Source: an uncultured Chlamydiae bacterium (GTDB taxonomy: Bacteria > Chlamydiota > Chlamydiia > Chlamydiales > JAJFMA01). From it: DNA of 64,000 nt. The translations under genes and the position numbers were made by a program. Shown piece after piece: positions 17,501 to 25,223 of this stretch (within the stretch, counting starts at the first letter, position 1; each line of letters opens with the position of its first letter). A model generated the notes under the pieces. That model was not told the DNA's origin. It was given only the letters and a program-made list of their open reading frames with translations, and did no database searches. The stretch covers positions 2,272,001-2,336,000 of the forward strand of contig CAVQMM010000001.1 in assembly GCA_963713615.1 (NCBI GenBank), in the 5' to 3' direction.

Positions 17501-18157
17501 TTGAAGGGTATTGAATTGTTTCTACTTGCACATTTCGCCGCCTCCTACCTGCTTGTCGACCAGCTTACCATCGGACGTCGCGAGCTCAAAAATATGAACT
17601 GGAAAGACGAAGAATATGTGACCGAGCTTGGTAAACAACTCGCTGCCGGTTACACCAGCGCTGTAGCAGCCTTTACCAACCTACCTAAAGAGACTGTAAG
17701 GCCTTTTTCGGAAAAGGGTGGATTGAACTGGCCAAAGATGGCTCGTCAAATGTGCTTTTGGATGCGCAATGATGATACTGGCTATCTACCCCATGTCAAA
17801 AAACGAAGCATCCCTGAACGGATTTTTGAAGATGCATCATGTACTGTTGCATCTACGGATGACCTACGGGGTTGGAATCATGATCATGGGTTTATGCTAA
17901 ATCCACCACACCCAGACTCCGGTCCAGTGAATGGTCAGCATATGGTTAAAGAAGCGGAGCGCAGCTGGTATGTCACAGCTCTGTTCCTTGCTGTGATGAA
18001 GGATGCGCAACGCAAGGCGGAAAAATGGAAGACGCGTGCAGAGCAGTGTGACGAACCTCAGAAAAAGAAGCATTTTTTTAAGAAGTCGCTTCAGCATCAA
18101 CCTGGTCAAGCTGATTTAATAGCACAGCTGAATTTACTGCTGGGTATCAACTCTTAA
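14531..18157 (+). CDS. Large effector-like protein with C-terminal SidJ-family pseudokinase (putative glutamylase) domain
   Basis: GRTL..K.Q, YFCYLH, HDLFLL..HGIV...LADLFH, RDDQGYY, GRL..W..AI.Y.N.RASGLADLAD and DSGPVNG match motifs recalled from Legionella SidJ; two N-terminal hydrophobic segments. Confidence 0.8.
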   Translation: MEINSDPIHPTDRSTFTGRWSSSCIHKVAAYGCILAVAYVAAQIFEEDIAVSGGTFLFTTATMLTGYWLTKILVGHSQHSEQVGQSLNSRSENAERSDDLFRQSIALGLKQIPLSDPFQPLSAPVNLAKDRIVLEPVLLTDEQKQVLSVFGGMIHMATEYFDPALSNWKNGDAFRTDGDKQWDCKRANLARAICHPLIGQLREDPTDENIKAVDNFIQAVTCDTLKMYLHAHFANVLSIHGRKSEAAVACNNFVRLAKKQQRFRKHAEIYVLDRAQISKDICEGILALPDCAIQADIDALIDLVLNPPEPQGMDNMTLRIVQTTLFTLQHRGYKLSQVGTKCLENLYKSKVGPCYSSYLLAGQRQSAMLVLDLIGRLQNSHEHMLSIVDFVQAGSYFLYDAEVRERFLEVVFTNRLFVNSYLDVSGALAKNEPSRMDKERGRLILKSSKGCLPLSDVILDERTLQVHFFILKLLGNENIYSNSRNTSEFIKSFIANELRSQFSLDFTARLQHRLFQLRSGDEYRVLTPNILQDYSKDLPQPFVRRLEKLFPSEEIVGRYRQFEIIHWLLSHREDIDVHHSSKAISVLLEALNSRHIPTQLMLDILQVFSLEECNEYFKGLMEDDRSPLSAGLQGSCKLLSQAGFSPEVNVDFYLLAAMHTLFLSKNLLVQQLRLIPKKWLKSYFKSLFFHPELLKPILDSHFKLNWIDLADGGSAKATWSPLVNELLSTMGASNGVDGFEETSFAKAYQAAMTTPNEEPKSISFDQIIDGWTFDQVLGRTLLFRRDGQYRAIKLQRSDEAIDILWRELRLVQLLKSEIAPEGLLTKWPKPIHVYDVGDLPQEYQAQLKIEIALANGHVNAYVYEFCDRSYFCYLHHRSLDKIQFAQAREAMLHDLFLLARHGIVYTALADLFHNLEQMEERDDQGYYLPLVDLFRNLVSEGSGRLSGMWKAIKYLNARASGLADLADTDLIANIIQNLEESPFRLRKLKGLKGIELFLLAHFAASYLLVDQLTIGRRELKNMNWKDEEYVTELGKQLAAGYTSAVAAFTNLPKETVRPFSEKGGLNWPKMARQMCFWMRNDDTGYLPHVKKRSIPERIFEDASCTVASTDDLRGWNHDHGFMLNPPHPDSGPVNGQHMVKEAERSWYVTALFLAVMKDAQRKAEKWKTRAEQCDEPQKKKHFFKKSLQHQPGQADLIAQLNLLLGINS

Positions 18158-19112
18158 GCTCCAGAGCCCATTGTTGCGCGGCGGGTTGTCCGGTGAACGA
18201 TGACTTTATTGCTGGATCAACCTGGATACGCCAATCGTTTTCTTTATTAATATCAAACCAGATCAAAGCTTCGACACCCCATTCTTTGCATATGTGTATG
18301 GCTTTTTTCAACCACGCGTTTTTGGCAATCTCATCGCCCACAGAGGCGGTTTCAAACACAAATAGAGGTTTGGTTGGGGCTATGTCTCTAAGCTCCTTAA
18401 ATGCCTTGGAGAAGATCTCTTCAAAGCTCCGCCAATGGGACCAGGCGACACTGTCGCCCCAGTTATATCCATCCACTCCTAGGATATCTATGTAGTCATC
18501 CCCCGGATAGTAATGCTGCAGCACATTCCAATCGGGTGCATGAGGCACAGAGTCGGCATTTGGACAAAAGGCCCATAAAATATTGGTAGCGCCATGCTTC
18601 CGAAACAAATCTACCACGTAACGATACATCTGCACGTATCGACCAGGGGTGTGTTCTCCATACTCGTCTTCACTACCTGTCCAGTGGTACTCCCTCAAAT
18701 TCATTTCATGAGCGAATCGCAAAATGAGAGGTTTGCCCCATTTCTTTACTGCCAGAGCAAAGGATGCCAAATAGGAATCATAGCGCCCTGAGATGACCTC
18801 AGCTATTGTCACCGCCTCTGAGTGGCCATCTGTGATGTGCGTCGGCTCCCAGGTGACACATGGAAGCGCCCCATAATCCCAAATGGCTTTAACGCTATCT
18901 GCGTCAAAATCGGAAGTCCATTGCAGATAGATCCCAACAATTTGTGGGCGCATGCCTGTGGCGGATGCGTGGCGAAGTAAAATAGTTTGAGAGGCAGGGC
19001 CCTCTATGGCGGAGCCCCAAAATAATGGACGACTAGGCCCTCGGTGTAGCAAGGAGCATCCAACGCATACACTGACCAACAGCGTAAACATCAATGGTTT
19101 GAAATGCGTCAT
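18147..19112 (-). CDS. Glycoside hydrolase family 26, probable lipoprotein
   Basis: TWEP, LRFAHEMN acid/base motif, YYPGDDYIDILGVDGYNWG, KPLFVFETAS nucleophile; lipobox-like VCVGC. Confidence 0.9.
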   Translation of the reverse strand: MTHFKPLMFTLLVSVCVGCSLLHRGPSRPLFWGSAIEGPASQTILLRHASATGMRPQIVGIYLQWTSDFDADSVKAIWDYGALPCVTWEPTHITDGHSEAVTIAEVISGRYDSYLASFALAVKKWGKPLILRFAHEMNLREYHWTGSEDEYGEHTPGRYVQMYRYVVDLFRKHGATNILWAFCPNADSVPHAPDWNVLQHYYPGDDYIDILGVDGYNWGDSVAWSHWRSFEEIFSKAFKELRDIAPTKPLFVFETASVGDEIAKNAWLKKAIHICKEWGVEALIWFDINKENDWRIQVDPAIKSSFTGQPAAQQWALELKS

Positions 19113-24352: not shown

Positions 24353-24353
24353 A

Positions 24354-25223
24354 CTACAAGCCCTCGATTGGTATAGTACGCGCCTGAATCTTGCGCTCTA
24401 GCCTCTCCTTAAGATCCTTCGATTGGGCTCTTAGATAATGGTCATAGATCAGTACGATCGTATTGTAATGCCAATAAAGCTTTTCCTCTAGCTCCTTGAT
24501 GGAAACGATATAAGGGACATGCTCTCCCGTCTTAAAGGCCAGATTCAACAAGTCCAGGTTCACCTCCGATATCACCAGCTGGTGGATCTCCTGAAAACTG
24601 TCAGGAATATGAAAAGCCCCACGAAGATCATCCAAATGCAGTCCAGCCTCGATAGCAGCCAATTTTTTAATTTTTTCGTTCAACGTGGCAAAGACATCCT
24701 CAAAGAAAATCTGACTTAACTGTGAATAGATCTCAGTGCTGAAGCCCGTTGTTCTGGAAAAATAGGCTGCGAGGTGTTTAAGGTACACACCTACCCCTTT
24801 CTTCAGTAAGACACACTCTTTAATGCTAGTTCGAAAAACCTTCTCAAGGTTTCCATTAGACTCAAATTGCGGTCTCTCGCCCTCCTTGATAGAAATCCAA
24901 ACCGGATATTCCTGGACGACTTCTTTGACAAATGCAAGCCGATAAATTCGCATCTTTTTATCTGGACTGCTGTCAACGGATTCTATAACCCCTCTCGTGA
25001 AAAACTGGCCCGCTCGGTATAAAGGGATATGTAAATTAACGAAGTCATATTCATTCAGAAGATAACACTGTGATAGCCATGAAGGACTAGCGAGCTCAAC
25101 CCCTTTCTCCCAAATGCGTAGTGGAAAATATTGGAACAACTCATAGTCTGGCTGGATTGTTCCGTATAACGGAAGCAGAGTAACCGAGCGCATGGGAGGT
25201 GATGAGACGGTGTTTGCTGTCAT
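24354..25223 (-). CDS. Hypothetical cytoplasmic protein, first gene of the EPS operon; possibly a degenerate PilZ-like domain
   Basis: Strong RBS GAGGGGAGG; beta-rich N-half and helical C-half; the fold call is tentative. Confidence 0.65.
   Translation of the reverse strand: MTANTVSSPPMRSVTLLPLYGTIQPDYELFQYFPLRIWEKGVELASPSWLSQCYLLNEYDFVNLHIPLYRAGQFFTRGVIESVDSSPDKKMRIYRLAFVKEVVQEYPVWISIKEGERPQFESNGNLEKVFRTSIKECVLLKKGVGVYLKHLAAYFSRTTGFSTEIYSQLSQIFFEDVFATLNEKIKKLAAIEAGLHLDDLRGAFHIPDSFQEIHQLVISEVNLDLLNLAFKTGEHVPYIVSIKELEEKLYWHYNTIVLIYDHYLRAQSKDLKERLERKIQARTIPIEGL

Follow-up and report, generated by a model that had tools for sequence, protein, structure and literature searches.

The closest described relatives of the operon treated here are synthase-dependent secretion systems, which combine a processive family 2 glycosyltransferase (GT2), a tetratricopeptide repeat (TPR) protein with an outer-membrane barrel, and a co-encoded hydrolase. 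For the Bcs system (BcsA-BcsB-BcsZ-BcsC) of Escherichia coli and Cereibacter sphaeroides, excerpts of two papers describe how R580 of the BcsA PilZ domain tethers the gating loop through E371 until cyclic di-GMP (c-di-GMP) binds (PMC8892547, PMC5567048). BgsA, of the BgsBA system of Sinorhizobium meliloti, possesses a C-terminal c-di-GMP-binding tail of its own, according to the excerpted text of PMC5567048. RiGT2 of Romboutsia ilealis is described in part of PMC10374906 as a BcsB-independent (1,3;1,4)-glucan synthase whose PilZ domain is required yet does not bind c-di-GMP, and multicellular magnetotactic bacteria carry bcsA and pilZ genes without bcsB or bcsC, together with a cellulase-sensitive coat, as far as the excerpt of PMC11239054 reports. 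The present analysis concerns six genes, A to F, in a 64,000-nucleotide stretch of an uncultured Chlamydiae bacterium (assembly GCA_963713615.1, contig CAVQMM010000001.1, positions 2,272,001 to 2,336,000), hereafter the window. To our knowledge, the polysaccharide export known in chlamydiae comprises only that of glycogen and lipopolysaccharide. The literature consulted contains no description of such an operon or of a synthase-dependent system in chlamydiae, with the limit that subscription papers or supplements could hold one, and the main texts of PMC8892547 and PMC13609730 contain neither "chlamyd" nor "GH26".

The six genes are a real, intact and uncharacterised variant of synthase-dependent polysaccharide export, in which a processive GT2, a TPR protein with a predicted barrel and a co-encoded hydrolase are all found. 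The balance of evidence tips towards a machine that would polymerise and export a beta-glucan, most likely the mixed-linkage (1,3;1,4) form, accompanied by a separate PilZ regulator predicted not to bind c-di-GMP. As to the product, mixed-linkage glucan leads at slightly under an even chance, a cellulose-type glucan follows at about one in three, and any other polymer would be the outcome in perhaps one case in five.

The system works like Bcs yet stands outside Bcs types I-III, having neither BcsB nor a PilZ domain fused to BcsA. Both have a GT2 with the D,D,D,QxxRW and TED motifs and the FxVTxK loop, a TPR and barrel exporter, a co-encoded endoglucanase, and a PilZ fold in the locus. Unlike in Bcs, the PilZ protein is separate, carries an extra helical bundle and has no c-di-GMP motifs; a family 26 glycoside hydrolase (GH26) stands in place of a family 8 enzyme (GH8); two small TPR proteins are added; and the synthase, about 27-29% identical to BcsA-type proteins, forms its own branch. 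BgsBA, a mixed-linkage glucan synthase, is similar in having a BcsA-like GT2 without PilZ motifs or BcsB, and its product class is likely the same, whereas gene E has no C-terminal tail and none of the six operon genes matches HlyD, the BgsB-type partner. The S. meliloti pSymB locus that we take to be bgsBA (an HlyD-like gene and a GT2, unannotated in the record) differs further by the absence of a TPR-porin and by a GT2 only 26% identical to E. RiGT2, by its description, offers a precedent for a structural PilZ but is Gram-positive, with a fused, motif-bearing PilZ and no porin. The poly-N-acetylglucosamine system Pga (PgaABCD) shares a PilZ-less GT2 under a partner protein and a TPR-barrel porin, and is set apart by the low PgaC-model score of E (70 bits against a cut-off of 422), by the lack here of the PgaB deacetylase and PgaD, and by the GH26 hydrolase.

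Six minus-strand open reading frames (ORFs) in the order A-B-C-D-E-F fill positions 18147-25223 exactly (Table 1). A and B are separated by 1 nt, B and C overlap by 14 nt, C and D by a 4-nt ATGA, D and E are 15 nt apart, and E and F again share a 4-nt ATGA; a GGAGG site precedes the ATG of A. The tight coupling claimed by the sequence-only reading is thus borne out by the coordinates, with overlaps of 4-14 nt and gaps of 1-15 nt. At one end a convergent gene overlaps the stop codon of F, and at the other a dispersed repeat is found upstream of A, which bounds the operon on both sides. The guanine-cytosine content of its genes (0.44-0.49) matches that of the genome (0.468; 3.97 Mb, 99% complete), and the nearest named relatives of E and A are metagenome-assembled genomes of Chlamydiales or Chlamydiae, on which its chlamydial placement is based. 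The scan for promoters and terminators returned 6 and 10 sites against chance expectations of 12.0 and 7.7, and provides no evidence. A search of sequencing runs listed no RNA data set, with DNA shares of 0.20 or less, and supports no statement on expression or habitat.

Table 1. Genes of the export operon and neighbouring features, in window coordinates
Feature	Position	Strand	Length	Assignment
Gene A	24354..25223	-	289 aa	predicted stand-alone PilZ-fold domain (about residues 11-121) and four-helix bundle
Gene B	23933..24352	-	139 aa	N-terminal membrane anchor (residues 10-28) and TPRs
Gene C	23332..23946	-	204 aa	TPR protein with signal-peptide-like N-terminus, judged from sequence
Gene D	20789..23335	-	848 aa	signal peptide, TPR array, predicted C-terminal outer-membrane barrel (about residues 540-848), YRF end
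Gene E	19109..20773	-	554 aa (551 if the start is the ATG at 20764)	BcsA-like processive GT2, no PilZ
Gene F	18147..19112	-	321 aa	GH26 of CtLic26A (lichenase) type, likely lipoprotein
Convergent gene	14531..18157	+	1208 aa	SidJ-like
Dispersed repeat	25398..25627		about 230 bp	MITE- or REP-like
16S-23S-5S rRNA operon	8582..13741	-		ribosomal RNA
Split gene	41237..42770	-		glucose-6-phosphate dehydrogenase, two overlapping frames
ORF array	2957..5401	-	181-184 aa each	five overlapping ORFs
IS66 element	5853..8060			insertion sequence

Gene E encodes the synthase. Residues 19-547 of E match the CelA model (E 1e-57, 195 bits against a cut-off of 699), GT2 models match as well, and the best solved relatives are the BcsA proteins of C. 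sphaeroides (E 2e-33) and E. coli (E 1e-24). Seven hydrophobic segments appear by hydropathy, and the motifs DD130-131, DAD210-212, TED301-303 and QQHRW339-343 and the gating loop FVVTPK469-474 are all present; in general form (DD, DxD, TED, QQxRW, FxxTxK) they are invariant across 23 synthase homologs. No PilZ domain was found on E: the CelA match ends before any PilZ, no PilZ hit was returned, and E stops about 15 residues past its last membrane segment, as all 23 aligned synthases stop soon after theirs. BcsB (PF03170) has no match in this 99% complete genome, nor do the Pfam PilZ and GGDEF models, while the controls (E. coli for BcsB) were positive. A BcsA-like GT2 lacking PilZ, in a gene set without BcsB, had been proposed from the letters alone, and both points hold. 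The genome encodes a UGP3-like UDP-glucose pyrophosphorylase; in two further chlamydial genomes (G110, G170; here G, L and f mark genomes, loci and families of the survey) a homolog of it is arranged head to head with the operon. The same genome also encodes a second, distant CelA/PgaC-like GT2 of 629 aa (G000:C1:3541844-3542800, L019), with a similar-scoring match in G037.

Export is probably provided by genes B, C and D, all of which match TPR models; in D the repeats run to about residue 530. In an atlas search, residues 540-848 of D scored 0.94 against barrel clusters of PgaA (198 features in common) and BcsC (174), with the PgaA barrel as top match and the ten best matches having a family falling into one family or clan. 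D ends in YRF, and 12 of 13 homologs end, by eye, in aromatic-x-F or similar, with one RRL and one WFL. The C-terminal part therefore appears to be a PgaA/BcsC/PelB-like outer-membrane barrel. A single-sequence AlphaFold model of residues 346-848 was set aside (predicted local distance difference test, pLDDT, 32.5). The two small TPR proteins and the TPR-porin named by the earlier reading accordingly stand, the barrel as a prediction. B is a candidate periplasmic scaffold standing in for BcsB. Among 80 metagenome loci retrieved by the synthase, B-type genes were the best label in 36, C-type in 45, and the barrel was present in 68. Chlamydial family f5 showed neither B nor C, and its D reaches 1271 aa, which would fit a split or fused scaffold.

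The hydrolase gene F matches GH26 (E 2e-14), and its residues 42-304 align with the lichenase CtLic26A, the GH26 module of Clostridium thermocellum CelH, at E 8e-41. CtLic26A, its best solved relative, is a beta-1,3/1,4-glucanase (PMC10470212), and lichenases form their own branch within GH26, according to the portions of PMC10470212 and PMC6556568 available. The catalytic glutamates E136 and E254 of F are intact, align with those of CtLic26A and are invariant in 12 homologs. CtLic26A degrades plant glucan, whereas F lies in a biosynthetic operon. The N-terminus of F is hydrophobic with a non-canonical, lipobox-like VCVG-C site, and F is likely a lipoprotein. GH26 occurs in 70 of the 80 metagenome loci and GH8 in none; with the barrel in 68, the linkage of these genes is not due to chance, and the synteny of GT2 and GH26, suggested earlier as a check, is seen in most of these loci. 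Among 21 chlamydial synthase copies, GH26 adjoins 14, GH8 one, neither is in the locus in five, and one lies at a contig edge. GH8 follows the synthase in the scanned Chlorobiaceae loci (L005, L011) and precedes it in one chlamydial copy (G220). Since F is nearest CtLic26A and GH8 substitutes for GH26 in some relatives, a glucan is likelier than a mannan. A hidden Markov model search of GH26 against 1.84 billion proteins gave 1805 matches at 1e-30, a figure that speaks to family size only.

Gene A provides the unusual part of the system. The sequence-only reading called it simply a cytoplasmic protein, and hydropathy indeed finds no membrane segment; left unnamed there, it is here predicted to be a separate, degenerate PilZ protein, on the strength of its fold and of Pfam PilZ matches among its homologs. 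In the AlphaFold model (17 sequences, pLDDT 82.7), residues 19-98 form a beta-barrel and residues 126-280 a four-helix bundle. The top Foldseek ranks are the PilZ domains of PlzD, BcsA and MotI (probability 1.00; E 4e-3 to 2e-2, none below 1e-3), and VIA comparisons gave Z 8.3 with PlzD (root-mean-square deviation 3.2, 84 residues) and Z 8.1 with the PilZ of E. coli BcsA (2.2, 69 residues), a phage neck barrel being level with them at Z 8.5. A wide VIA search with the model returned generic four-helix bundles in its top 50 (Z up to 12) and no PilZ entry, and the atlas placed PilZ clusters at 0.89, as a lead only. A itself has no noteworthy Pfam match and none to Pfam PilZ, nor has any of the 17 members of the first, mostly chlamydial alignment; the link came only through metagenome homologs, and among 23 homologs scanned 13 match Pfam PilZ at E<0.05, nine of them over its cut-off.

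The c-di-GMP motifs were compared in an alignment of 32 rows: 18 of 27 metagenome homologs (without duplicates and partial or mis-called ORFs), 10 chlamydial-genome copies and four database proteins. RxxxR and DxSxxG occur together in 14 rows, and neither in 18. The motif-less rows comprise all 10 chlamydial-genome copies, two loci that fall within the clade of chlamydial synthases, two proteins that equal or closely resemble a chlamydial copy, two further rows of unknown origin, and L148 and L149, which group with a Syntrophales synthase. A few of these rows may have N-termini shortened by start calling. In A itself the positions read TVSSP for RxxxR and RIWEKG for (D/N)x(S/A)xxG, and with the motifs gone, chlamydial A could presumably not sense c-di-GMP. 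Motif-bearing relatives accompany Desulfobacterota-type synthases, and GGDEF genes adjoin A or lie two genes off in L088, L093 and L127 (63 of 133 candidate neighbours scanned). A strong match to A was found in 11 of 400 chlamydial genomes, all of them synthase carriers, and 10 of these 11 have no GGDEF match, the exception being G404. Related genomes are not independent, although the pattern spans three families. Thus A would be a stand-alone PilZ with a helical bundle, predicted to be unable to bind c-di-GMP, and the chlamydial novelty, as far as these alignments go, is a PilZ partner retained yet motif-less. Its retention and the invariant helical core (K141, H150, R157, E220, N254) suggest a structural or protein-switched role.

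Of 401 chlamydial genomes, 18 carry the synthase; they belong to five families, whereas none of the 30 genomes of family f37 has it (1.0-1.2 Mb, a size suggestive of Chlamydiaceae). The earlier expectation that such a system would be out of place in Chlamydiae therefore needs qualification: it is not unique to this genome, and it is common in Desulfobacterota. Named top matches of the synthase profile are mostly Desulfobacterota or Deltaproteobacteria, at about 50% identity, and a plasmid search gave synthase matches of 25-29% identity only. A quick LG+G4 tree with Chlorobiaceae as root unites the 12 chlamydial synthases of A-bearing genomes in one clade (98), nested in a group (98) with Desulfobacterota synthases and intact-PilZ loci, the f5 and f13 copies standing apart. 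An earlier quick tree gave two of the 12 (G001/G288b) another position; in it the BcsA and BgsA-like references are long branches outside the entire family. Two separate acquisitions were not upheld, as a single chlamydial clade is not rejected (p-AU 0.38) and G001/G288b moved between trees. On these trees, the likely course is that the genes came from a Desulfobacterota-like donor and that the motifs were lost afterwards.

In the proposed mechanism, E would polymerise UDP-glucose and thread the chain across the inner membrane; B, C and the TPRs of D would span the periplasm without BcsB; the barrel of D would serve as the exit route; and F would trim or clear stalled chain and be dispensable. 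The source system, of Desulfobacterota type, would have A docked on E and gating it in response to c-di-GMP, the RxxxR of the free PilZ supplying the tether in trans to E331 and the gating loop. E331 aligns with BcsA E371, which forms a salt bridge with R580 (PMC8892547), and is at least 90% conserved among homologs, which lends this weak support, as an E371 equivalent may be kept for other reasons. In chlamydiae, A may have persisted as a partner with a structural role or one under the control of other proteins, regulation having passed to a SpoIIE/STAS/RsbW switch or to transcription. STAS genes occur in eight chlamydial loci, most of the f32 ones also having genes for an RsbW-type kinase and a receiver-SpoIIE protein, and small custom profiles found STAS in 13, RsbW in 12 and "SpoIIE" in 22 of the 80 metagenome loci, the last count inflated by the receiver domain in its profile. 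Five STAS matches lie elsewhere in this genome. The complete history, in which a split synthase and free PilZ were taken from Desulfobacterota-like bacteria, stripped of the c-di-GMP site, placed under a phosphorylation partner switch and used to lay a mixed-linkage glucan coat on cells or inclusion, is a speculative proposal that we would not expect to hold in full.

Several other arrangements were met in the survey. On Nostoc flagelliforme plasmid NZ_CP024792.1 (L079), the order is DUF3131-GH26-DUF3131-GT2-PIG-L deacetylase-STAS with a convergent SpoIIE; its GT2 is a different, distant synthase with the same GH26 and partner-switch pairing. In the chlamydial locus L049, too, GH26 is followed by a PIG-L gene. 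In the chlamydial locus L050 (G247:C1:2062000-2081999), chemosensory-like genes for a CheA-like Hpt/CheW/receiver protein and CheB lie directly upstream of SpoIIE-STAS and the operon. The idea that chlamydiae lack c-di-GMP altogether was discarded on the GGDEF counts given below, and c-di-GMP signalling may be under-appreciated in environmental chlamydiae.

A number of findings weigh against a mixed-linkage glucan machine with a motif-less PilZ partner. Regarding the polymer, the GH26 profile has no match in carriers G003 (99% complete), G006 (61%), G240 (96%) and G137, the first three of which hold the closest synthase relatives; G137 has two GH8 genes elsewhere in its genome. In a quick tree with weak support, F is long-branched and does not group with the other chlamydial GH26s; it may be fast-evolving or separately gained. 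One characterised lichenase is insufficient to fix the specificity of the subfamily, and the identity of F to it is modest. In the tree the GT2 is distant from BcsA and BgsA alike, hence it does not discriminate cellulose from mixed-linkage glucan, and a synthase model that fits mixed-linkage glucan also fits cellulose in the excerpt of PMC10374906. Regarding control, the locus in this window has no partner-switch genes; 146 of the 401 chlamydial genomes have GGDEF, many matches being strong and none in f37; G404 combines a GGDEF gene with an A that lacks the motifs; and L148 and L149 lack the motifs in non-chlamydial loci. The A profile finds homologs in 27 of the 80 metagenome loci (many of them truncated), seven of the 18 carrier genomes have no A, and in metagenome loci A is often convergent to the synthase, beside kinase or phosphatase genes.

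The foremost alternative keeps the same machine and changes its product to plain, amorphous cellulose, with GH26 serving as a BcsZ-like endoglucanase. This is a reasonable minority prospect: the best structural relatives of E are all cellulose synthases, every BcsA motif is kept, and in Chlorobiaceae and G220 the place of GH26 is taken by GH8, to which BcsZ belongs. It is countered by the sole close characterised GH26, a beta-1,3/1,4-glucanase, by the CelA score, which is far under its cut-off, and by the missing BcsB, co-catalytic in BcsA systems according to the excerpt of PMC8892547.

A second alternative, given about one chance in four, accepts export as described and removes A from the synthase, making it a PilZ adaptor in a neighbouring kinase or phosphatase cascade, like MapZ on CheR1. 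The frequent convergent placement of A is in keeping with it, the adjoining genes encoding histidine kinases, SpoIIE, RsbW or GGDEF proteins, as are the synthases without A and the binding of CheR by MapZ through its PilZ helix, described in part of bioRxiv 10.1101/814665. Yet in the window, G003 and G006 the operon begins with A and no signalling gene adjoins it, and A never occurs without the synthase in 400 genomes. The preferred reading keeps A as a predicted partner of the export machine.

That the product is a beta-mannan, glucomannan or xylan is doubtful. GH26 consists mainly of mannanases and xylanases, so most of its enzymes act on these polymers (excerpts of PMC6556568 and PMC10470212), but the best mannanase match of F (8.5e-10) falls 30 orders of magnitude short of the one to the lichenase. 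The genome has five nucleoside triphosphate (NTP)-transferase matches, including two GlgC-like and one CDP-glucose-type, and mannose-1-phosphate guanylyltransferase is the best-scoring class for none of the three scanned (two weaker matches are unclassified). The sequence-only reading had rightly placed a GH26 in the operon and had leaned on the mannanase majority to propose a non-cellulose glycan; the enzyme proves to be of lichenase rather than mannanase type, a beta-glucan is likely, and "non-cellulose" is still plausible.

A decaying horizontal acquisition without present function is very improbable, for the patchy spread, the G006 copy interrupted by transposases and other genes, the G247 copy that reads as fragments in an assembly with ambiguous bases, and the lost regulatory motifs are outweighed by six intact frames with catalytic residues and coupled junctions in the window, by base composition in line with the genome, and by chlamydial synthases that are only 37-64% identical yet keep all motifs.

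If the complete history proposed above is true, no secreted beta-glucan would have been known in the phylum before, and a BcsA-type enzyme would be gated in a new way. In host-dependent bacteria of protists, a secreted beta-glucan would matter for attachment, for encystment and for how the cells survive outside the host, and the operon points to an unstudied surface polymer under unusual control. The synthase clade would offer a natural experiment on BcsA gating, with free PilZ bearing motifs, free PilZ lacking them, or PilZ absent, and the GH26 clade may be the sign of a large, unstudied set of bacteria that produce mixed-linkage glucan.

Other features of the window lie outside the operon (Table 1). 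The repeat upstream of A has internal inverted repeats, resembling a miniature inverted-repeat transposable element (MITE) or a repetitive extragenic palindrome (REP), and 81 further genome loci align to it over at least 180 nt. Three ORFs of the array at 2957-5401 were scanned and gave no Pfam match; the array has about 470-bp spacing and a tandem look, and lies beside the IS66 element. The glucose-6-phosphate dehydrogenase gene is split by a frameshift or assembly error, and the ribosomal RNA operon lies 4.4 kb from the export operon. The convergent gene, with an intact frame, encodes a protein with a SidJ-family pseudokinase/glutamylase-like region (NF033873, E 5e-28, under cut-off), and elsewhere in the genome it has a strong paralog (48% over 692 aa) besides several that correspond to its N-terminal part.

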